The translations under genes and the position numbers were made by a program. Of a DNA stretch of 64,000 bases, positions 9,051 to 50,199 are shown in pieces (positions within the stretch are counted from its first letter, which is position 1; each line of letters starts with the position of its first letter). Source of the stretch: a virus (taxonomy: Duplodnaviria; Caudoviricetes). The notes below the pieces were generated by a model. It searched no databases, was not told where the DNA came from, and saw only the letters and a list, made by a program, of their open reading frames with translations. The stretch spans positions 102,547-166,546 of the IMG/VR virus record IMGVR_UViG_3300021399_000106; one strand, written 5' to 3'.

Positions 9051-10367
9051 TTATACCTTATTAATTATTTCAGATTTAACTTTTTCAATAAGAATTTCCT
9101 TATTATTTTCTATCTTGCCTTCAATAATATCATTTAGATATCCTTCTAAAATATTTTTGATTATAGGTCCAGGTTCTAATCCTAATTCAATTAAATCATT
9201 ACCATTAATTGCTAATTGTTTTAATGAATAACAACCATTACGAACTATATCTTCTAAATCATTACGTAGTTTAGTAGCTTTATATTCACTGATATTACCA
9301 ATAACCCGAGACATTATTATAGAGGAAACCATAACATAATAACAATAATCTTTACTGTCATTATGTTTTAATTCATGTAATGCTTTTGTAATTATATATC
9401 TATCAACATCTTCATGGCTTAATTGTAAATATTGATATTTACCACCAATAATTTCACTATTTTCAGTAACTGTTCTACAAATATCATTTATATAATCTTT
9501 ATCTTCATTAGATAATATTAAATAGTTAAATAATAAATGTCTTGATTCAATTCTATTAAATAGTAAACAATATGATAATATATAATCTCTATTAAATAGA
9601 GGATCACTATTAAATATTCTGGATATTAAATTCATACTGTAAAGATGCGTATCATTTAAAGGTAATACTTGTTTAAGAATATTATAAGCTAATACATTAT
9701 TTAATATTCTAGCAAATCCTTTTCCACAAACTAATTTATTTAATTCTGTAGTTTTACGTTCCTTTGCAATGGTAAATAAATTATTTTTTAATTCCTCTGC
9801 GGCTAATAGAGTATTATTTTCAACTTCAAAATCTAATACTGAAGCAAATCTAAGCATTCTTAAAATTCTTAAAGCGTCTTCATCAAATCTATAATATGGA
9901 TTTCCAACAGTTTTAATAATTTTATTTTCTAAATCAGTTATACCGCCAAAATAATCTATAATATATTTACCATCATATACTAAGGCATTAATAGTAAAAT
10001 CTCTTCTAGATAAATCTTCTTGAAGATTAGTTGTAAATGTAACTTCATCTGGATGTCTATGGTCAGTATATTCTCCATCTAAACGATATGTTGTAATTTC
10101 ATAATTTTCCTTCTTATATCTAACAGTTACGGTTCCGTGCTTTTCACCATTATTATTAATTAATGTATAATCTTTATTTTTAAATACCTCTTTAATTTGT
10201 TCCGGAGTGGCATTTGTAGTAATGTCATAGTCCTTAGGAGTTTTATTTAATAATAAATCTCTTACACATCCACCTACAATATATGCTTCATATTTAGTAT
10301 GTAATTTGTTTAATAAGTTTTTAACTGCCTCTGGAATATTAAAATCATATTTATATTTTCCTACCAT
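9051..10367 (-). CDS. cca: CCA-adding tRNA nucleotidyltransferase (class II; poly(A) polymerase family)
   Basis: VGGCVRD, DYDITT, EITTYR, RRDFTINAL, EDALRILR, C-terminal LAINGNDL..LG..PGP. Confidence 0.9.
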   Translation of the reverse strand: MVGKYKYDFNIPEAVKNLLNKLHTKYEAYIVGGCVRDLLLNKTPKDYDITTNATPEQIKEVFKNKDYTLINNNGEKHGTVTVRYKKENYEITTYRLDGEYTDHRHPDEVTFTTNLQEDLSRRDFTINALVYDGKYIIDYFGGITDLENKIIKTVGNPYYRFDEDALRILRMLRFASVLDFEVENNTLLAAEELKNNLFTIAKERKTTELNKLVCGKGFARILNNVLAYNILKQVLPLNDTHLYSMNLISRIFNSDPLFNRDYILSYCLLFNRIESRHLLFNYLILSNEDKDYINDICRTVTENSEIIGGKYQYLQLSHEDVDRYIITKALHELKHNDSKDYCYYVMVSSIIMSRVIGNISEYKATKLRNDLEDIVRNGCYSLKQLAINGNDLIELGLEPGPIIKNILEGYLNDIIEGKIENNKEILIEKVKSEIINKV

Positions 10368-11007: not shown

Positions 11008-11901
11008 TTAATTGCCATTTATTTTTCTAATATCATCAAACATAGGTTTAATATCATCTAATAATGGTTTTCTTTCTTCCTCAGGTGTTGTTGAAGATGT
11101 AGAATAAGTATTTTCTACTAAATCAATAAACATAGTCATCTGACCATCTTCACCTGCATAGTACATATTCCACTCCTCATCAGTTAATAATCTTTTAGGT
11201 TCTAATTGTTTTAAAGCTAGGTTATCAAAAGATACAACATCAAAATGATTTACTAATTCAGGTAATTCATTATATAATGCTTGTTTAGTTGTATCGACTA
11301 AGGTATTATGATAATTTTCACCACGTCTAAAATCCTTATAACCTAAAATTAATAATTTTAAATTATTATCATATAATTTCTTTAAGGTTTCCACTGAATG
11401 AACTCCATTAATAACGTGAATTACAGCTGTTGGAAATTGCTTTATTAGCTCAATAAAATGTTCTTGATCTGGATTTGTTAAGGAAACACCTAACCCATGA
11501 ATTAAATTATTTTCAATTAACTTAGCAAGTAAATCATAATTTTCCATAAAATGCTTTTGATTTACTGTCATATTACAAATTAAATTTAATCCTTTACACT
11601 TTTCTAAGAAAGGAATTAAATCAGGATGTTCTAATGGATTACCTCCACCAATAGCTAATTCTGTATAAGGTAATAGAGTTTCAATGAACTTAGCATTCAT
11701 TATATCCCCGTGTTTACCATCAGGTAATGAATTTTCATGGCAGTACTGGCACATCATATTACATTTATTTGTAATCTTAACATCCATAGAATCAGGATAT
11801 TCAGGTATTAATTTATCCTCTTTATTATATTTAATTAACGTACCATCTGAGCATAATATCTTAAAATAATTCCCATTCTTTACTTTTCCAATAAATTTCA
11901 T
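11008..11901 (-). CDS. Radical SAM enzyme
   Basis: CNMMCQYC (CxxxCxxC), AIGGGNP, MTVN; N-terminal NGNY...DGT extension; no SPASM cysteine cluster. Confidence 0.92.
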   Translation of the reverse strand: MKFIGKVKNGNYFKILCSDGTLIKYNKEDKLIPEYPDSMDVKITNKCNMMCQYCHENSLPDGKHGDIMNAKFIETLLPYTELAIGGGNPLEHPDLIPFLEKCKGLNLICNMTVNQKHFMENYDLLAKLIENNLIHGLGVSLTNPDQEHFIELIKQFPTAVIHVINGVHSVETLKKLYDNNLKLLILGYKDFRRGENYHNTLVDTTKQALYNELPELVNHFDVVSFDNLALKQLEPKRLLTDEEWNMYYAGEDGQMTMFIDLVENTYSTSSTTPEEERKPLLDDIKPMFDDIRKINGN

Positions 11902-11906
11902 TTTTT

Positions 11907-12299
11907 TTAATCCTCCTTAAATCTAATAACTTCATTATCAACTAGATATTTAATATAATCATCACATTTTCTAATTCCGTTTTGAATATAAGGTGTGCAA
12001 TCTTCAAATGCTTTTTCTCTTAAATAATATTCAACATAAGGAATAGCAGGCTGACAAAATGCATCATCTAAAATATTTGTTTCGAGTTTAGTAAATGTTT
12101 TACTATCAATTGATATATTAAGAGTTTCACTAAATCTTTCTCCACCTTGATAAGTAGCTTCACTTATGGTTCTACAAAAATACCATGTTTTTGGATTATA
12201 ATTTGTAAATCCTAATTCCTTTAATTTTTCTGCTGTTAATCCTTTACAAACTTCTACTTTATCATCATGAAAATCATATTTACTGTAGTGTTTTTCCAT
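11907..12299 (-). CDS. Hypothetical protein
   Basis: ORF packed in operon. Confidence 0.65.
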   Translation of the reverse strand: MEKHYSKYDFHDDKVEVCKGLTAEKLKELGFTNYNPKTWYFCRTISEATYQGGERFSETLNISIDSKTFTKLETNILDDAFCQPAIPYVEYYLREKAFEDCTPYIQNGIRKCDDYIKYLVDNEVIRFKED

Positions 12300-12300
12300 A

Positions 12301-12936
12301 TTATAGCATCTCCTTTAAAACTTTTTTCCTAACCTCTATTGTCTTTTCACCATTTAAGATTTTGCATAACCATTCAGGTCTAATTGAGATTAAGATATAT
12401 TTATTTAACTCATTATCATAAGCATACATCATATTTTGTGGTGCTTTGGTAATAGGTTTATATTTTTCTTTTTCTTCAAAAGCCCAACCAAACATATTAT
12501 CGTAGGACTTATCATAAGCCATATACTCACTTAATTCTCTTGGCTCATCAAATATATGTAAGTTCTTAATGTGGATTGCATAACCATTTTTACCTTTTAA
12601 GTAATCATATATTTCTTTATTGGTTAAACAACTTTTTCTTAATAATTCAATATTACTAATATTTAATCCCAAATAAAATGGCTCATATTCTTTTGAATTA
12701 TCATAAAATGCTTGTCCTGTTCCATCTATTGCATAAGATAAATTATAATCTATTTTCGAACACGCTATTTCCTCAACCTCATAATCACATTCAGCTACGA
12801 TTTTGCCATTTAACAAGTAATCTTGTTTTTCGTGAAACTTATGAGTAGAAGTTATATATTTACTTTCATAAAATTCATAGATATTTTGATTAAATAAATA
12901 AGGCTTTGATTTTGTACAATATAATAGTAATTTCAT
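12301..12936 (-). CDS. ASCH/PUA-like domain protein, apparently circularly permuted
   Basis: ASCH signature ISIRPEW..ILNGEKTIEVRK lies at the C-terminus; LYCTK, NGKIVAE, GYAIHI, EPRELSEY, APQN precede it. Confidence 0.75.
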   Translation of the reverse strand: MKLLLYCTKSKPYLFNQNIYEFYESKYITSTHKFHEKQDYLLNGKIVAECDYEVEEIACSKIDYNLSYAIDGTGQAFYDNSKEYEPFYLGLNISNIELLRKSCLTNKEIYDYLKGKNGYAIHIKNLHIFDEPRELSEYMAYDKSYDNMFGWAFEEKEKYKPITKAPQNMMYAYDNELNKYILISIRPEWLCKILNGEKTIEVRKKVLKEML

Positions 12937-13523
12937 TATTTTAATTCCTCCAAACTTTTATTAAAGTTTTTATTTAATTCACTAATATCCTCATTTAATT
13001 TGTCGTTATAATATTTTTTCTTGTCCTCTAATACCTTATCTTTTAATTTTTGCCAATAATCTAAAATAGTATTCTTAATAGCTGTAATATTTGAATTTAT
13101 ATCAAAGTAGAATAAATTTTTGTTTTCATTATTATAATCTGTATCAATTGTAGAATCCCAATGAAAAGGACCATAACCTCTATCTGATTCATGATTCTCC
13201 ATTAATAAATCATTTACATCGCCGTTAAAAGAATAACAATTTGTGTTAACACAGTAACAAACAACAAAATTATAAATATCTGTATTTATTAACCAACCTA
13301 AATAATTATGAGGTAATTCAATACCTTTTTGTGCCACTATAACTTTATCAATTTTAGTATCATCTACACTAACTCTTATTCTATAATATATTTTTCCTAC
13401 CTCTAAATCTTCAATTGAGATACTATTAGGAAAGTTTTTATTATTTAACTCCTTACTTTCTTCCTTTATTTCTGTTTCCTGTACAGTATTTTTCATTATT
13501 TCTTTTTTATGTTTTCTAAACAT
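12936..13523 (-). CDS. Hypothetical protein
   Basis: GAGGTG RBS before ATG 13523. Confidence 0.7.
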   Translation of the reverse strand: MFRKHKKEIMKNTVQETEIKEESKELNNKNFPNSISIEDLEVGKIYYRIRVSVDDTKIDKVIVAQKGIELPHNYLGWLINTDIYNFVVCYCVNTNCYSFNGDVNDLLMENHESDRGYGPFHWDSTIDTDYNNENKNLFYFDINSNITAIKNTILDYWQKLKDKVLEDKKKYYNDKLNEDISELNKNFNKSLEELK

Positions 13524-13544
13524 GGTGATCACCTCTTCAATATA

Positions 13545-13606
13545 AATATACAATAAAAAGAGGTTATATTAACCTCAATTTTAATCTTTTTTAATATTTT
13601 TTAATA
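13545..13606 (-). repeat. Terminator-hairpin plus promoter element, copy 1 (near-identical to 17286-17336)
   Basis: AATATACAATAAAAAGAGGTTA..AACCTC...TTTTAATATTTTTTAATA shared with the second copy. Confidence 0.75.
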
Positions 13607-13613
13607 AATTTTA

Positions 13614-13973
13614 TTAACCATCATATCCAAATCGACAAATAGTTTTAATTACTTCACCATTAGGAGTAGTAAATGTATTTTGATCTGTTTCTAGATCTTC
13701 GCAAAAACTCTCATAGGTACATAAGCCATAATCACCATATAGTTCCTCAGGATTGTCCGTATATTCAGGATTTTCCTCTACAATATATTTATTTACTTCA
13801 TCTAGGTTATAAAATTTACCTTCTTCAAACTTATTATTCTTCCAACTTCAACTATATTCACAATAAATGGTTTCTCCGTTTACTCATTTATCAAAATCAT
13901 CCTTCATTGCAATAACCATTGAGTGTGTTGAGCTTGAGTTAGTTTCAAATGTATTTTTTCTAATATTAATCAT
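13614..13973 (-). CDS. FETNSSS-motif protein, short type 1 (TGA=Trp; absent from ORF track)
   Basis: MINIRKNTFETNSSSTHSMV...DKWVNGE...TTPNGEVIKTICRFGYDG; two in-frame TGA. Confidence 0.85.
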
Positions 13974-13976
13974 TAT

Positions 13977-14246
13977 TTAAATTCCTTCCTTATCTTTTTC
14001 TAATTTATATAATTTTAAATCCACAATACTATTAGTATTTATAGGAATAATTATTACATTTTCTATACCTTTATCGCTTAACATATTTTTAAGAGCTGTG
14101 CAATCCTGACAAATCCTTTCCTTAGATGTATTCACAAATTCTACCTTAATTAAATATGTATTATTAGAATCTAATTCTGTAAAGCTAATATCTTTTGCAT
14201 ATTTAGCAGTAATTTCTTCTAATTCTTTTTCCGTATATGTAGCCAT
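13977..14246 (-). CDS. Hypothetical protein
   Basis: AGGAG RBS; packed in operon. Confidence 0.65.
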   Translation of the reverse strand: MATYTEKELEEITAKYAKDISFTELDSNNTYLIKVEFVNTSKERICQDCTALKNMLSDKGIENVIIIPINTNSIVDLKLYKLEKDKEGI

Positions 14247-14258
14247 AATAATATCTCC

Positions 14259-14633
14259 TTATCCAAAATAGTAATCTAACGATGCTTCTTTCTTTTCCGC
14301 ATTATATTCATAACTATCTAATTCATCTATTGAATAAAATGTAATTGGAAAGAAACCTAATCTATGATGTCTTGTAACTTCCTTATATCTTTTTAATTCT
14401 TCCTTACTCATTTCTTGCCAATTTTCAGGAAATTCAACATTATCAATTCTATTCTTAATATAATCTTTGATATCTAGCCAAGTACAAAATTCAGGATAGC
14501 CATTAGATTCATGCAATACATTATAAAATAATTTTCCATTTGCAAAATCTATCCAAGTTTTAGCATCGCAAACAACTAAAGAATGTGAACTTGAACTATT
14601 AGTTTCAAATGTTGATTTTCTAACTTTAATCAT
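14259..14633 (-). CDS. FETNSSS-motif protein, short type 2
   Basis: MIKVRKSTFETNSSSSHSLV...FANGKLFY...LDYYFG. Confidence 0.85.
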   Translation of the reverse strand: MIKVRKSTFETNSSSSHSLVVCDAKTWIDFANGKLFYNVLHESNGYPEFCTWLDIKDYIKNRIDNVEFPENWQEMSKEELKRYKEVTRHHRLGFFPITFYSIDELDSYEYNAEKKEASLDYYFG

Positions 14634-14979
14634 AAAATACTACTTCCTTATCTACATCAATTATTTTATATAAAGCTTTTAATTCAGGATTTATTTCATC
14701 ACATAATACATAATTAAAACGATTTCTTTCATCTTCACCTTTAAATTCAATAAGATACTTATTACTTTCAGTTGAAAAATCTGATAGCTTTGTTGTTTTA
14801 AATACTGAAGTTTTACAGATTAATGACTTACGTGAATCGCTATATAAAAATTGATATATAGCCTTTATATCATCAATATTAATGGATTCTATATGAAAGT
14901 TTAAACAAGGATTAGGTCCACCATAGTCATTAGTATATTTTAAAGCATTTATAAACACATTTTCATCATTCTTATTCAT
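14626..14979 (-). CDS. Hypothetical protein
   Basis: Translationally coupled on both sides. Confidence 0.65.
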   Translation of the reverse strand: MNKNDENVFINALKYTNDYGGPNPCLNFHIESINIDDIKAIYQFLYSDSRKSLICKTSVFKTTKLSDFSTESNKYLIEFKGEDERNRFNYVLCDEINPELKALYKIIDVDKEVVFYD

Positions 14980-15617
14980 TATTCCTCAAAATCCTTTTCT
15001 GTAATATTATATTTTGAACATGTACAAGTACTGTCAATATATTCTTTTACTCCAGTATTTAATCCTGGCTTTAAGGTTGGGTTAAATGCGTCATAATAAT
15101 TTGAATTGTCATTATCAATTACTATCATGCATCCTTTATTAAAAATTATATTAATTAAATCTTCATCATCTAATAAATCTTGACTTTGATGGTCAATACT
15201 TCCAAATGGGTCACCATATTCATCAATATTTAACTCAAACTTAACCTCTTTAACATCTGGACATTTTTCTTTGATTTTTTCCAATAAATCTTCTAACTCT
15301 TCATTTACAACACCATCAGCAATCATTTGTTCAGCTTCACTATGAGTGGTATCATTCTCTTCTCCTCAATTCAAATGAATACATAATCTAGTTGCAACAT
15401 AATCTAACTTATCATTAGATGAAATCAGTAGGTCATCAGTACCAAAACCAGTTAAAGATTCAGGACCTGACCAACCATAATCTCTAAAATGGATAGTTAA
15501 AACTCCATTATCGGTTGCTAGTTCATACTCAATTCTATTTGGATTTTTCTGTGAATAAACTAATGAGTGAGATGAACTAGAATTTGTTTCAAATACATTT
15601 TTTCTTATTTTTATCAT
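14979..15617 (-). CDS. FETNSSS-motif protein, long type 1 (TGA=Trp at 15366-15368)
   Basis: ORFs 15366..15617 and 14979..15326 in frame; FETNSSSSHSL, FRDYGW, DKLDY, GSIDHQS, IVIDNDN. Confidence 0.85.
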
Positions 15618-15626
15618 AAAATCTCC

Positions 15627-16412
15627 TTAATGGTTATCATTATCAATAATTAAAATTATGTTTCTATCAAATAAAAATCTTTCATAACCAATTTTTCTAA
15701 TTTTTGGCATTTGATCATTTTCCTCACCTTCAAATGATTCGTGATCTATATAACCAAATCCTTGAAATTTATCTTCACCGGCTTCTGTACTTACTTCGTT
15801 ACCGTGTCTACCTTTAAATGTTATAGACCAAGTATGCCAATATGGATGTGAAATATCTTCTAATAAATTAGTTTCAGGTTTTAATTCTTCAAAGCAACTT
15901 GTTTCTGAATCATTTTTTACATCACAATCGTCTAATTCAGACCACCACTTATATTTAAAACCTTTAAAGTTAGGATCATATTCTTTTAATATTGCCATAA
16001 CTTTCTTAACTTCTTCATATTCTTCTAATAATTTACAAGCTTTATTCCATCTCTCATTTGCTTTTTCATCATCATAATTATTAAATTTATAATATTTAGA
16101 CCAATCCTTATCCTCTTTAACTACCCATTCTTCATCAACTTTATCAGATAAATATTCATTTGCAAAGTAAGTCATTAAATAATTTAATTTTTCTTCAAAA
16201 CTTTTAATTACTTCTTTTCTTTGCCAACCATAACCTTCGAAATTAATAGTTAGATAACCTTTATTTTCATCATTCCAACCATACCAAAATTCTGATTCGC
16301 CTTTTTTATAATAACATTTATTTCGCCAATTTTTAGCGTTTGGATGTTTATATACTAAACTATGACTAGAACTTGAATTGGTTTCAAAAACATTATTCCT
16401 GATTTTTATCAT
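15627..16412 (-). CDS. FETNSSS-motif protein, long type 2
   Basis: MIKIRNNVFETNSSSSHSL, FEGYGW, EKLNY, GYIDHES, LIIDNDN; start at ATG 16412 by analogy with paralogues. Confidence 0.85.
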   Translation of the reverse strand: MIKIRNNVFETNSSSSHSLVYKHPNAKNWRNKCYYKKGESEFWYGWNDENKGYLTINFEGYGWQRKEVIKSFEEKLNYLMTYFANEYLSDKVDEEWVVKEDKDWSKYYKFNNYDDEKANERWNKACKLLEEYEEVKKVMAILKEYDPNFKGFKYKWWSELDDCDVKNDSETSCFEELKPETNLLEDISHPYWHTWSITFKGRHGNEVSTEAGEDKFQGFGYIDHESFEGEENDQMPKIRKIGYERFLFDRNIILIIDNDNH

Positions 16413-16629
16413 CTTTAATCTCCACTTTATCAAAATATTGCACTATCGCAGTAAAGTAAGTTCTAATATCATAAACATCATTATTACCACTACCTTCTGG
16501 TTTAGGTAGATAAACTATATTTTGAAGTTTTGGATATCTAGAATTTTCGCCTACATTTAAATTTAATAGGAATTCATTTAATTCCTTTTCTGATTCTATA
16601 TATCTAACTCTTAAAACAACTTTTTCCAT
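16393..16629 (-). CDS. Hypothetical protein
   Basis: AGGTG RBS; overlaps next gene. Confidence 0.6.
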   Translation of the reverse strand: MEKVVLRVRYIESEKELNEFLLNLNVGENSRYPKLQNIVYLPKPEGSGNNDVYDIRTYFTAIVQYFDKVEIKDDKNQE

Positions 16630-17336: not shown

Positions 17337-18404
17337 TTATTTAAATAGAACTGATTTATAAATTGGTAATAAAATTTTATTATAAATTTCTTCTCTATTA
17401 CACTCTCTTGGTAGTGAAGTATTTTTAAATAAAAGTTCTGATTCTTTTTCTAGATTATGTAATAAAGTATAGAAATCTTCATTAAATGCACCTTTTTCAG
17501 TTCTATATTTACCATTTCTGATATCCATTAATAAATCATGTTCATCTTTACGGTAAGTATGTAAATCTTCATCCTCTAAAATTTCATTACACATAAAATA
17601 TAATCTAATTAAATGCATTGCGTGTTTATTTAAATGTAAGTCATCCTTCTTTTTATTTCTTTGACCTTCAGTGTTCTTATAATCAGCAACTACATTACTA
17701 GTTTCTGACATAATTACTCTAAAATATGCTAATGGGAAATGTTCTAAATTAATATCACAATATAAACCATAAGTTTCATTTCCTACTTCACTAATATTAG
17801 CATAAGGAGTATTTTCATCTACATAAATTTTAAATTGGTCTTCATTGAAATTTAACTTCTCAACACAATTTTGTAAACAGTTATTAACACTTCTATTAAT
17901 ATGTTCAGCCATTTCTTTTTCAGATAAAGCCTCGCCATCTCTACATAATGCATTCTCTAATCTATTTAATTGAGCATGAGCATAACCACCAAAAGTATAA
18001 TAAGCACGTTTAGATAAGAATAAATGTCTATTATCTAATAAAATTTTTCCTAGTGGACTTACATAAATATAATGTTCTGGTTTACAGAATAACATTTCAA
18101 TAATATTTGGATTACAACCTGTAACTAGGTTAATAAATTTATTTAAACTATAAATTACAGTATCAGTTGCTTTATCCTCTCTTTGCTCAAAATGTGTAAT
18201 ACCTAAAATATCTTTTTCTGTATTTAAGGCAACACCTCTAATATCAACATCGCTTGTTTCAATATTAGTTCCATATGAGTGTGAACCACCTAAAGTTAAG
18301 AATAAAATCTTATCTTTACCTAAATGTGGATCAGTCCATAAAAATTCATATTCTTTACTATTAAATACTTTATCTTTGATTTCTTCTAATGTCATATTAT
18401 TCAC
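17337..18404 (-). CDS. Pol-beta-fold nucleotidyltransferase (RlaP/Nuc-transf-like)
   Basis: GGSHSYGTNIETSDVDIRGV, NPNIIEML, FGGYA, KHAMHLIRL, LLMDIRNG. Confidence 0.85.
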   Translation of the reverse strand: MNNMTLEEIKDKVFNSKEYEFLWTDPHLGKDKILFLTLGGSHSYGTNIETSDVDIRGVALNTEKDILGITHFEQREDKATDTVIYSLNKFINLVTGCNPNIIEMLFCKPEHYIYVSPLGKILLDNRHLFLSKRAYYTFGGYAHAQLNRLENALCRDGEALSEKEMAEHINRSVNNCLQNCVEKLNFNEDQFKIYVDENTPYANISEVGNETYGLYCDINLEHFPLAYFRVIMSETSNVVADYKNTEGQRNKKKDDLHLNKHAMHLIRLYFMCNEILEDEDLHTYRKDEHDLLMDIRNGKYRTEKGAFNEDFYTLLHNLEKESELLFKNTSLPRECNREEIYNKILLPIYKSVLFK

Positions 18405-34387: not shown

Positions 34388-34407
34388 TTATACAATTAAC
34401 TAAATTA
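34388..34407. promoter_or_regulatory. Back-to-back divergent promoter motifs at the strand switch
   Basis: ATTGTATAA on minus (34388-34396) and ACTAAATTA on plus (34399-34407). Confidence 0.65.
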
Positions 34408-46197: not shown

Positions 46198-49100
46198 ATG
46201 ATAACAACATCAGATTTAAATATTAATAACAAAAGTTATATTAAAAAGGATTTTTATCAGATATATCCTGAAATTGTTGATTTAGTAAAAGAATTAACTG
46301 AATATTGAGATCCAGAAAATACAAATGAATCAGATCCAGGTGTAGTTCTTTTAAAAATAGCAGCTTTCGTTGCAGATAAGTTAAACTATAACATTGATAA
46401 AAATATACTAGAAGCATTTATAACATCTGCGACACAAGAAGAAGCAGTTAGAAAAATTTGTGAATTAATGGGTTATAATATGAAATATTATAATTCTGCA
46501 ACAACAGAAGTTTCTTTCATGTGAACAGGAGAAGAACTTCCTGAAACATCAGAAGAAGCTGTTGAAAATGGAGATAGTATTACATTACCTTGATTCGATA
46601 CAAAGTTAACTAATGAAGCAGGAGACATTATTTACACACTAGTTAATACAGTTGTATTAAATAGAAGATATGTTGTTAATAATACTGCTAGAGCTATTCA
46701 AGGAGATGTTGTTGACCTTGAAATAAATGAAGATAATGTATTAACGGCTGATAATCTTGATAGTAGAAATAGATTCTATTTACCTGAATTAGCAATAGCT
46801 GAAAATGGTATTTGAATATTTAACAAAGAAGATATTTCTGAAGACGGAGTTTGAACAAGAATCGATAACTTAAATACAGAAATTTTAGGAAAAACAGTAT
46901 GGAAATTCGGATACGATTCTAAATTAAATAAACCTTATATTCAATTTCCAAGTGATATTGTTTCATTAATGAAGAATGGCTTAGTAATAAAATATGCTAG
47001 AACAGCTGGTAAAAATGGTAATATAAAAGCCAATACTTTAACAAAACTTCAAAATCAAACATTATATACAAAAAACAATCTTGATAATCCAATTCAAGAT
47101 GTAGAGGCAAAATTACTTGTAAAAAATTTAAGTGCCACAACTAATGGTACAGATATTGAAACAATTGATGAAGCATATGAAAATTACAAAAAAACAATAG
47201 GTATATTTGATACTCTAGTTACATGCAGAGATTATGCAGCAGCTATCTATAAGATGGTATTCGATGAAAAATTAAATAATAACCCAATTGTTTCTAATTG
47301 TCAAGTATCTGATATTAGAAGTGATATCAATTTTGCTAATAATGTTGTTAAATATGGCAATTTAGGAACATACTATGAAGATGTTGCTGAAACAGAGCAG
47401 AAAGAAATTACCGCAAAATTAAAAAGTTCAGGTGAAGAAACTCAAGTATATATTGAATCACCAAAAATTAGTGATTATGATTTGTTATTATATCCATTAA
47501 ATCCTATATATAATTCATATAATGAAAACACTTTTGTTAATTCTTTTACTCCGTTAGTAGATAATACAGATTCTGTAGCTACTATAAAAAGACAATTACT
47601 TCCTTACAAAACAATTTCTCATAAGATAAAGCAAGTTTCAGATATAGATAATTCAGGAAACAACATTTATCTATATAAGAATCTATATAAGTTAAATGCA
47701 AAAGTAATTACACAAAATAAAGTAAATACATTTGAACAAGAGGAAATAAGACAAAATATATTCAAGGCACTTTATGAGAATTTTAACCCAAGACATCTTG
47801 AGTATGGAGAAGAAATTCCTTATGATAGACTTTTATCTGTTATGGAAAAGGCTGATCCTAGAATTAAGTTAGTTAATTTAGATGAACCTGTTATTCAAAG
47901 TTACTATATGACAGATGATGGAGAAGATCATTTATTATATTCAAATACACAAGCAGCTTCTTCAGACGGATACTTGAAAATGGTAGCAAAGAATATTCTT
48001 GGCGCAAGAATTCCTTTATTTGATTATAATAAAGATATTACAGTGTCATTTGATTGCACAAATGTTGAAAATATGCCTATATATGATAGATCTTACGGAT
48101 CTAAGAATATATACTTTGATGGTAGCGCAGGACTTACTGTTGACAACTGTTCTATAACTCATGCAACTACACACATTGATTTATCAAATGTATTAGAGTC
48201 TAGTTACAAACTAGATGACAATGAGGTAGTACAATTAGTAACAGGAAGATTAGTTACAGATTATGCTTATCCTTTATATACTAATTACTTTATCAAGTTA
48301 AATTCAGAAAGTGAAGATTTATCAAACACTTATATTAAAGCAAATTTACCATATAAATTAAAACAAGGTGAAATTTTATATATAAATTATACTGATGGTG
48401 ATGATAATAAAGAATACTGAATTGAATACTCAAGTGACAATAAGAAAACAATTGTTAATGGTGTTGAAAAAAATGAAAAATTCTGTGGTATAATTCAAAC
48501 TAATTTTGATTTATATGATTCAAAATATAGTGCCGTAAATAAATGCAAGAAATATAGTAAGAAAAAAGAGTCAATATTACCTGAATGAGCTACTGTTGAA
48601 GGAATGTTCTCTTTACAAACTACGGAAGAGATTGATATTATGTCTTATGCATTTACTCAATTAGAAAGCGATACAGCATATTTATACTGAATAGCTAATA
48701 ATAACAATACATTAACTTTCCTTAAATATAAAGTAGAAACAAATTATGTAGTTTACAGTTATATACTAGATGATGGCGAATATATTTTCTATACAGACAG
48801 TTCAAAAACAAATTTAATTACTATAGGTTCAGGAAATAGAATTAATATAAGAAAAGCAATAACTTCTTCTAGTAATATTCTTGATAGTATTACTTGATAC
48901 TATAATACTTCTAGTGCTGTAATTTCTGCAGATTCTGTTATGGAAAAAGGTATAGGAGCATTCTCTGACATTGACTGAGTAGTAAAACATTTCTCTAAAG
49001 ATGAATGATTACAAGTTGATCAAATGGAGATTAGAACTATTTCAAGTGGAAGAACTATTAATGAATTAAAATTAATTTTCGATGATGGAGACGATGAATT

Positions 49101-50199
49101 TGAAAGCTCAAAATGAAGATTACTAGATAAAATTACATATGATGACGCTTATTCTATCGAGACAACTGATGCACAGAAATGATTTATTAGACCTATGTTA
49201 AACTTGAATATCGGACCTAATAAAATTCAAAAGATAAAATCAAATCATGCTATTTCATTTTATACAAGTTGATATTATTTAAAAGATGATGAAACCAAAA
49301 CTCCAATTCCAAATAACAAGATTTATGATTATTTAAAATATAATCCTAGTAAAATTGAGGAAAACATATATATACAAACACCTATAATACGTATTACAGA
49401 CTTAGGAGATTCTGGCGATGAAACATTTATGGCAATTAAATCTAACCTAAATGTTCAAAGAAGTGGTGGAACATTATTCTCATTACATACATCAGGAATA
49501 AATGCTTCAAAGTATGATAATCTATCAATATTTACTATTGACACACAATTGTCAGACATTATTGCAACACCACGAGAAAGTACAGAAAAAGTAGAACTTA
49601 ATTCCGCTGATATTAACTTTACTGAATATTCATCTGCAACTTTCCCTATATATGTTCCAAATAATAATTATAACATAATATCTATATACTACAGTGCTAA
49701 TAGCGATGTTGAAAAATTTGAAATTAAAGTTAATAATGGAAGATTTATTGAATATACACACTTATTCGACGACAATATTCAATATAATACTTCTAAGAAA
49801 TACACAAGAGGATTACATCATTTTGTAATATTTAGAGATTCCAATGAACACTGCACTATGGAATTATCATCAGCATATAAAGGAACAAAAGCTATTGTTG
49901 TTGCTAATAAGTTAGTTCAATACAAAAAAACAGAATATAAAGGTTTAAATTATAAGGCATTTAACTTAATATCTCCTAATGATTACAAAACTTTATTCAA
50001 TACATATATAAAGAATCAAGATAATTTCTACGCAACTGTTGATATTGAAAATAATATGCTATTAGATTTTGATAACTTAACAGATCCATATTGTTTATTT
50101 AATTATAATAATATTATTAATCATTTTGTATTATCTGAGCTTGATGTTGACTCGTTTGATAACATACAGATAGCTACCTCTTCAAAGGTGAATAGATAA
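46198..50199 (+). CDS. Large baseplate wedge protein (T4 gp6/gpJ-like N-terminus) (many TGA=Trp)
   Basis: KDFYQI...W...ESDPGVVLL..AAFVADKLNYNID, LMGY, GNI, NGTDIET, LVTCRDY; single frame of 1333 aa. Confidence 0.8.

Follow-up and report, generated by a model that had tools for sequence, protein, structure and literature searches.

A phage-borne radical SAM enzyme and its co-encoded proteins with a conserved N-terminal tag: a candidate two-component maturation module

Introduction

Radical S-adenosylmethionine (SAM) maturases are known for short peptides, the peptides made on the ribosome and altered after translation (RiPPs), and for a few enzyme cofactors. Among those acting on RiPPs are SuiB, which acts on SuiA on the way to streptide, and the sactipeptide enzymes CteB, which acts on CteA, and SkfB, while anSME turns a serine near the N-terminus of full-size enzymes, the Ser/Cys-type sulfatases, into a catalytic group. 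Here we describe a phage-encoded pair of protein families in which the same logic seems to act on whole viral proteins. The pair was recognized in a 64,000-nucleotide stretch of DNA from an uncultured phage (hereafter the window), which constitutes the last 64 kb of the 166.5-kb IMG/VR record IMGVR_UViG_3300021399_000106 (93% complete according to CheckV), and it consists there of one radical SAM enzyme and four proteins that share an N-terminal tag. A first-pass annotation made from the letters alone had proposed an undescribed system linking the tagged proteins to the enzyme, a proposal that is supported by the near-obligate co-occurrence of the two in both directions.

We propose that the locus encodes a two-component phage module in which a single-cluster radical SAM enzyme functions as a dedicated maturase that modifies the N-terminal tag of co-encoded proteins, a reading to which we assign a probability of just under 60%. 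The in silico support for it covers the conserved pairing of the two families, a predicted binding mode and register, and a kinship of fold with peptide maturases.

Results

The tagged genes of the window

Four minus-strand genes of the window (Table 1) begin with a common N-terminus of the form M-x-x-[IV]-R-x-x-[VT]-F-E-T-N-S-S-S-x-H-S (18 residues). The serines of the tag are encoded by TCN codons in some of the four copies and by AGY codons in others, in keeping with the synonymous differences noted in the first-pass annotation, which indicates that selection for the protein sequence maintains the tag and speaks against a recent duplication of DNA. Searched with the tagged-family profile, the four proteins gave E values from 3.5e-54 (the 212-residue copy) to 1.7e-9, with 2.0e-49 for the 261-residue copy. 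The 119-residue copy matched the profile of the short class B body (E 2.6e-19, although this profile of 73 sequences may include the copy itself), while the match of the 124-residue copy to it was weak (E 0.0018).

It had also been suggested that the four proteins diverge almost completely beyond the tag. This does not hold for all four: the two long copies are homologous over their full length and share GYGW, IDHxS and IDNDN motifs. The open reading frame (ORF) of the 261-residue protein could be extended by a TTG codon seven codons upstream (16412-16433); the ATG at 16412 is the likely start, given that only this codon places the methionine at the distance characteristic of the family, nine residues before the glutamate of the tag.

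Table 1. Features of the module and of its surroundings in the window.
Feature	Position	Strand	Basis or remarks
Radical SAM enzyme, 297 aa, without TGA, orphan phage family, without SPASM or twitch domain	11008..11901	-	PF04055, phrog_16999
N-terminal beta-hairpin region of the enzyme, residues 1-35, predicted tag docking site	11797..11901	-	N9, G10, N11, G20, T21
CxxxCxxC cluster-binding motif, residues 47-54	11740..11763	-	translation; invariant in alignment
Tagged protein, short class B body, 119 aa, two in-frame TGA=Trp	13614..13973	-	ends ..TTPNGEVIKTICRFGYDG
Tagged protein, divergent short body, 124 aa, without TGA	14259..14633	-	family profile matches tag only
Tagged protein, long class A body, 212 aa, one TGA=Trp	14979..15617	-	GYGW, IDHQS, IDNDNS motifs
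Tagged protein, long class A body with insertions, 261 aa, without TGA	15627..16412	-	ends IIDNDNH
N-terminal tag (residues 1-20)	16353-16412, 15558-15617, 14574-14633, 13914-13973	-	codon comparison, conservation statistics
CCA-adding tRNA nucleotidyltransferase	9051-10367	-	PF01743, E 7e-44
RlaP 'RNA repair pathway' nucleotidyltransferase	17337-18404	-	E 2.9e-18
ORFs between and around the tagged genes	11907-13553, 13977-14246, 14626-14979, 16393-16629	-	singletons among 238 related loci
ORF	12301-12936		phrog_3136 match; weak ASCH-like C-terminus

Pairing of enzyme and tag across genomes

Viral loci were fetched by the tag pattern alone (n=79) and, separately, by the enzyme pattern alone (79 viral loci and 80 loci from genomes or metagenome-assembled genomes (MAGs)). 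A homologue of the enzyme, 31-58% identical, was present in 71 of the 79 tag-seeded viral loci, nearly always adjoining the tagged gene on the same strand and in either gene order. Five tag loci with no enzyme gene within 10 kb were checked; three have the enzyme elsewhere on the contig and two lie on contigs that are 8-15% complete. In the other direction, a tagged gene was found in 78 of the 79 enzyme-seeded viral loci and in 70 of the 80 genome or MAG loci, and in most loci between one and six tagged genes lie beside the enzyme. The pairing is near-obligate in both directions, and the pair recurs in hundreds of phages. The opposite picture, named in the first-pass annotation as one that would refute the link, of motif proteins commonly occurring without this enzyme, did not emerge from the tag-seeded loci.

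When the ORFs of 238 loci, representing 82 lineages of the enzyme, were clustered at 65% identity, the enzyme and the tagged family were the only two families conserved together. We found no third conserved partner gene, every other neighbouring family being present in at most 8 of the 82 lineages; the commonest, each within that bound, are RlaP nucleotidyltransferases, AAA_33/KTI12-type kinases, RNA ligases and DNA methylases. Nor did any protease or transporter family accompany the pair across the 82 lineages. In one lineage (L045/L047) the enzyme and the tagged protein form a single open frame of 453 residues. Similar apparent fusions at four other loci (L111, L117, L138 and L199) were discarded as the result of reading a true TGA stop as tryptophan, which leaves L045/L047 as the only true single frame.

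The carriers include the Lak megaphages of Prevotella, the group of the cultured cyanophage Ma-LMM01 of Microcystis, and phages and prophages of gut Firmicutes. The matches in cellular genomes are mostly to MAG contigs of gut Clostridia, Bacilli and Bacteroidota, along with a few isolates. Gp130 of Ma-LMM01 begins with the tag and is separated by one gene from gp128, a radical SAM enzyme 41% identical to that of the window; the transcriptome paper on this phage does not name gp128-gp130, and they are not among its listed early genes, gp054-gp063 (PMC5780444). Rhodothermus phage RM378 encodes a more distant enzyme (27% identical), and the single adjacent upstream ORF that was translated there has no tag. 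A gene resembling poly(A) polymerases is located near the RM378 enzyme.

The single-cluster radical SAM protein and its predicted N-terminal hairpin

The enzyme of the window lies on the same strand as the tagged genes, 1,713 bp downstream of the nearest of them, and, as expected from the first-pass annotation, it has the CxxxCxxC motif and no auxiliary-cluster cysteines. It exceeds the gathering cut-off of the Pfam radical SAM family PF04055 (35.4 bits against 29.5) and matches phrog_16999 ('Fe-S oxidoreductase') at an E value of 4.5e-48, while its matches in NCBIfam were weak and generic, that to NrdG2 (E 2e-6) falling far below the cut-off of that model. Approximately 6,200 relatives were found. 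In an alignment of 33 homologues (31-90% identity) C47, C51 and C54 are the only cysteines that are invariant or close to it, which implies that the family possesses neither a SPASM nor a twitch domain. The same alignment revealed a family signature, an N-G-N...D-G-T hairpin at the N-terminus ahead of the cluster motif, in which N9, G10, G20 and T21 are invariant and N11 is nearly so.

The AlphaFold2 model of the enzyme (predicted local distance difference test, pLDDT, 94) shows alternating strands and helices, as in the partial beta/alpha barrel of the radical SAM superfamily, preceded by N-terminal strands at residues 3-9, 12-17 and 22-25, and the conserved 'ELAIGGGNP' stretch has the character of a glycine-rich SAM-binding strand. 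A Foldseek search with this model returned 94 PDB matches at E<=0.001, and the top ones listed are radical SAM enzymes. The closest solved fold is SuiB in complex with SuiA (5v1t; E 5.6e-9, template-modelling (TM) score 0.61), followed by CteB, SkfB, BlsE, PqqE, DesII, anSME and EpeE (5why, 6efn, 6c8v and 4k39 are among those listed). With respect to a PqqD-like RiPP recognition element (RRE), no Pfam match was found outside the radical SAM core, and the N-terminal 35 residues form three short strands, too short for a complete RRE.

Some homologues of the enzyme carry an intein (PF14890; P0220 and P0228), and one ORF (L055:9103-10017) has an intein-like start that runs into ..SNCHE, as if an intein were located inside the CxxxCxxC loop.

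Conservation of the tag

Statistics for the tag were compiled from 340 non-redundant tails from other loci, collected with a search pattern that itself prescribed E0, S+4 and H+7. Among the remaining positions, R-5, F-1, T+1, N+2, S+3 and S+5, are 98-100% conserved, and in 314 of the 340 tails the start methionine lies 9 or 10 residues ahead of the tag glutamate. In the AlphaFold2 model of the 212-residue copy (pLDDT 77, predicted TM score 0.78) residues 1-11 are disordered and constitute the sole long stretch of low confidence, though they are the most conserved; disorder in the most conserved residues of the protein fits a tail that folds only on a partner.

Predicted complex and covariation

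We modelled the enzyme together with the 261-residue tagged protein, SAM and a [4Fe-4S] cluster in three runs, alongside three controls, a kind of prediction that the first-pass annotation had proposed as a check. The ipSAE score, which is the confidence of the model itself and not a measurement, was 0.76, 0.77 and 0.76, as compared with 0.12 for the best of the three controls. In calibration 58 of 80 solved complexes, but only 2 of 110 mismatched pairs, attained this ipSAE mark, counts that are only a rough guide here given that our own alignments and the small molecules differ from the calibration set. The runs share at least 50% of their contacts, with a partner pLDDT of at least 61.

The confident interface is confined to residues 1-15 of the tag, and there are no confident contacts with the body. 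Tag residues 1-7 are predicted to pair with hairpin residues 19-31, the lowest expected errors being those of the contacts between hairpin residues 12 and 19-31 and tag residues 1-9. The tag also touches residues lining the interior of the barrel in the model, namely 81 and 83-86 (the glycine-rich strand), 110-112, 135-138, 160-162, 182-186, 221-226 and 270.

An approach independent of the structure predictor was provided by covariation, scored, relative to shuffles, as the mutual information of each hairpin position with each of the variable positions of the tail in 135 distinct enzyme-tail pairs. The strongest pair, enzyme residue 24 with tag residue 3, reached a z of 18.8 (next best, 12.4) against shuffles that leave shared ancestry in, and this pair is also the lowest-error contact of the complex model. 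Enzymes with R24 are paired with tags that have Q3 (28 lineages), those with K24 with V3 tags (7) and those with I24 with L/I3 tags (5), and at the adjoining position E25 goes with K/R at tag residue 2 and K/Y25 with I/L. Furthermore, the tails of paralogues within one genome are more alike at the variable positions than are the tails of other lineages, and this likeness holds between short and long proteins with unrelated bodies (13 of 13 lineages, Wilcoxon p 0.00024). We consider the covariation and tail-likeness results, both of which derive from sequence comparison, to be supportive rather than conclusive.

The bodies of the tagged proteins

The tagged-family profile was compared with 1.84 billion cluster representatives (clusters at 50% identity), which gave 4,174 matches at E<=0.001 and 1,648 at E<=1e-10, typically proteins of 160-185 residues. 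The common long form has the N-terminal tag followed by FGEFGWG, KLSYLxT and GYIDHQS and ends with IIDNDNH, and the short class is acidic, 108-147 residues long, with a C-terminal ..TTxSGDxIVAFGYYGYD. With the tag removed, short and long bodies had no detectable homology (hhalign probability 0.5%), so that, at the level of sequence, the tag appears to head at least two bodies that are unrelated by this measure. This bears on another option raised in the first-pass annotation, that the motif is a catalytic strand of a shared fold: the two long copies of the window do share a body, as that option supposes, but with no detectable homology of the short class to this body the option is at best true in part.

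Little could be learned about the bodies from known families. A search with the 261-residue protein gave 50 relatives, none with a Pfam domain, and nothing meaningful emerged when the tagged proteins, together with 46 relatives, were compared with Pfam, NCBIfam and PADLOC. Phrog_28997, to which no function is assigned, was matched by 37 of 46 members of the tagged family (best E 6.9e-12), while the four proteins of the window, which do match a profile of these same relatives, had no PHROG match at E<=0.01. The model of the 212-residue copy found no solved structure at E<=0.001 in Foldseek against the PDB, and the best Z was 2.5 in VIA-align against 48,161 chains; given that the model is of middling quality (pLDDT 77), this absence of a fold match does not prove a new fold. 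Against PDB sequences the best E value of the family profile was 0.18. Look-alikes in the ESM Atlas were viral hypothetical proteins only, apart from one cluster fused to a Tad2-like domain; P0129 is such a fusion of a tagged body to a Tad2-like domain (PF11195, E 3.2e-6).

Two candidate relationships were rejected. A reading of the body motifs as those of an SGNH hydrolase received no support from the fold searches. An ESM Atlas hit with a TM score of 0.55 to a phage radical SAM cluster lay behind the idea that the tag is a degenerate cluster loop (xTNxCNxxCxYCH against ETNSSSxHS) and the tagged proteins decayed paralogues of the enzyme; the profile-profile probability for this relationship was 0.2%.

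In one protein of 395 residues (P0112) a complete tagged domain is followed by another, whose tag (..RVNVFETNSSAVHS) is therefore internal, an arrangement that could reflect either a real duplication and fusion or two genes merged in gene calling.

Genetic code and neighbouring genes

The ORFs of the window, whose G+C content is approximately 26%, were called under translation table 4. That TGA is read as a sense codon follows from three lines of evidence: the codon counts in 82 long ORFs of the window (113 in-frame TGA and 82 TGG), the coincidence of TGA codons in the tagged genes with tryptophans of homologues, and a tRNA with the anticodon UCA encoded by the phage genome outside the window (G000:C1:38184-38259) in an array of 32 tRNAs. 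With regard to the second of these, the TGA at residue 30 of the 119-residue copy aligns with the conserved tryptophan of the class B 'KW.NGE' motif, and another TGA column is tryptophan in several relatives. The reading of TGA as tryptophan on which the first-pass annotation had relied is therefore justified.

TGA is not used evenly along the window. Few such codons occur in the minus-strand block at 9-19 kb, but they are frequent beyond 34 kb, in the plus-strand block, where one ORF (46198-50199) holds 14 of them in frame; this pattern resembles that described for stop-codon-recoded phages. Near position 34400 the genes pass from the minus to the plus strand, and there the GC skew also reverses its sign; this switch looks like a point of divergent transcription between two large gene blocks.

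In the window the module is flanked by the genes for the CCA-adding enzyme and RlaP. The conserved module does not include the ORFs that lie among the tagged genes or next to them.

Discussion

A proposed maturase with tagged protein substrates, and the alternatives

Among the roles offered for the motif in the first-pass annotation, that of a tag for recognition, or of a site of modification, on full-size proteins is favoured by the complex model, the covariation, the genome-specific tails and the maturase-like fold of the enzyme. In the mechanism that we envisage, residues 1-7 of the tag (M-x-x-[IV]-R-x-x) would add as a beta-strand to the N-terminal hairpin of the enzyme, and this strand addition would feed F-E-T-N-S-S-S into the barrel that holds SAM and the [4Fe-4S] cluster. 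The 5'-deoxyadenosyl radical would then abstract a hydrogen from one tag residue, most likely among Ser13-15, with a formylglycine-type aldehyde, a D-residue or a dehydro-residue as candidate products. The absence of an auxiliary cluster makes hydrogen abstraction more plausible when followed by epimerisation, by elimination, or by an oxidation in which the electron goes back to the main cluster, as it does in DesII. The modified proteins, with at least two unrelated types of body, would be the working effectors.

Several observations weigh against this proposal. Every residue of E-T-N-S-S-S-x-H is near-invariant, a strictness exceeding that of most maturase substrates, and such invariance also fits a peptide that provides the enzyme with residues for catalysis or ligand binding. 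Nor does the enzyme possess an auxiliary cluster, the electron sink of most oxidative peptide maturases. The long-class body has invariant Asp, His and Ser residues of its own. In the L045 fusion the tag is internal, so that a free N-terminus is not strictly required. Within the window, three unrelated ORFs separate the enzyme from the tagged genes. The shared ancestry retained in the shuffles tempers the covariation result, and the chemical change of the tag, the residue changed, the product and the effector role are all things that we infer from sequence and predicted structure.

The main rival, which we regard as possible but doubtful, takes up the first of these points. According to it, the tagged proteins would be interchangeable subunits or adaptors and not substrates: the tag, docked on the hairpin, would close off the barrel at its open side and lend Glu10, Ser13-15 and His17 to the active site, and each body would bring a different true substrate, be it a small molecule, a nucleotide, a nucleic acid or a host protein, to one radical SAM enzyme. 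Near-invariance at every position of the motif is indeed less typical of a substrate than of residues that bind a ligand or take part in catalysis, and the service of one to six bodies of different kinds per genome by a single enzyme, the Tad2-like ligand-binding domain fused to one of the bodies (P0129) and the lack of an auxiliary cluster all agree with such a role, which the binding and covariation evidence fits equally well. On the other hand, the confident contacts of the model are limited to tag residues 1-15 with none for the body, the nearest folds of the enzyme modify the bound peptide itself, and we know of no radical SAM enzyme whose active site is completed by residues of an exchangeable partner.

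Two further readings, self-processing and pure regulation, are less likely than either the maturase or the subunit reading. If the serine run were a self-processing site, which an N-to-O acyl shift would convert to a pyruvoyl group or to an N-terminal nucleophile, the enzyme would act at another step of the pathway. Ser-Ser junctions are the cleavage sites of several pyruvoyl enzymes, the tag stands at a fixed distance from Met1, and the invariant His and Asp of the long class could form an active site. This would leave unexplained, however, the covariation of leader positions 2-3 with the hairpin, the genome-specific tails across unrelated bodies and the near-obligate pairing with the enzyme, and we judge it quite improbable. 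No solved fold of a self-processing enzyme matched the model of the tagged body, although a missing match carries little if any weight. Least credible, and in our view very unlikely, is that the tag is a regulatory or inhibitory peptide capping the active site, or a partner for assembly or stability, with no chemistry on the tag, since although a barrel-filling peptide would block substrate access and the genes are co-transcribed in the same orientation, one genome would hardly keep up to six different inhibitors of one enzyme, and for E-T-N-S-S-S-x-H, placed deep in the active site, to be so strictly invariant suggests a part in chemistry or catalysis and not simple capping.

With regard to what a maturase and its tagged proteins might do for the phage, the Tad2-like fusion and the recurrent RNA-repair neighbours give weak hints of counter-defence or of an RNA-repair-related takeover of the host. 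A further and unlikely version of the proposal is that the enzyme installs a new protein-derived catalytic group (an aldehyde, a dehydro-residue or a stable radical on a tag serine) on an unseen fold, and that phages use the products as a modular counter-defence set, with effectors that, for example, capture or destroy nucleotide immune signals.

The module bears on an annotation gap, in that neither a Pfam nor an NCBIfam model covers the tagged family and its fold is not recognisable; a way into a large part of the dark matter of phages would be gained. An enzyme with a single cluster and a target motif rich in Thr, Asn and Ser could reveal new radical chemistry and provide a portable tag-and-modify tool. 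The prediction that the tag is modified is sharp and cheap to test, and the covarying pairs R24/Q3 and K24/V3 lend themselves to specificity swaps.

Comparison with known systems

Full-text literature searches found no description of the module, and phrog_16999 and phrog_28997 are bare annotations that give no function and do not connect the one family with the other. Among known systems, the glycyl radical enzyme activases (PflA with PflB, NrdG with NrdD) are, like the phage enzyme, small single-cluster radical SAM proteins dedicated to a partner protein, from a conserved loop of which they abstract a hydrogen. That loop is of the RVxG[FWY] type and lies near the C-terminus, however, whereas the element predicted to contact the phage enzyme is N-terminal and free of glycine, and the activases are not among the structural matches listed for the phage enzyme. 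Short-class proteins do end in ..G[YF]xG[YF]D, which falls outside the predicted interface of a complex that was modelled with a long-class partner.

The proteusin-type epimerases (PoyD and OspD) and EpeE, the last a structural neighbour, likewise modify a co-encoded ribosomal product, and PoyD-type epimerases act without a SPASM domain. The phage enzyme differs from these enzymes in having no family match at the level of sequence, in having folded proteins as its putative substrates, and in having no obvious conserved cysteine as hydrogen donor, only the CxxxCxxC cysteines being invariant. The resemblance to anSME, itself a structural neighbour (4k39), lies in the proposed action on a serine near the N-terminus of a full-size protein, but the phage motif is E-T-N-S-S-S-x-H and not (C/S)-x-P-x-R, the phage enzyme has no auxiliary clusters, and no match of the tagged bodies to a sulfatase fold or family was found in the fold and Pfam searches.

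The RiPP maturases SuiB, CteB and SkfB are the best structural matches of the core of the phage enzyme. Unlike SuiB, CteB, anSME and PqqE, the phage enzyme lacks a SPASM or twitch domain and the cysteines for auxiliary clusters, and a hairpin region of approximately 35 residues appears to stand in place of the PqqD-like RRE of RiPP maturases. The partners differ as well, being proteins of 110-450 residues (mostly 110-270) and not short peptides, and in these the conserved part of the tag is also the part that the model places in the active site; no conserved protease or exporter lies nearby, unlike in RiPP clusters, and the module is phage-borne. What the two have in common is that the genes for the (here putative) substrates are adjacent to that of the enzyme and often present in several copies, and that each substrate combines a conserved N-terminal recognition part with a variable remainder. 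As in the strand-adding RiPP maturases, moreover, the recognition part of the phage proteins is predicted to bind by beta-strand addition, with the residues that follow it inside the barrel.

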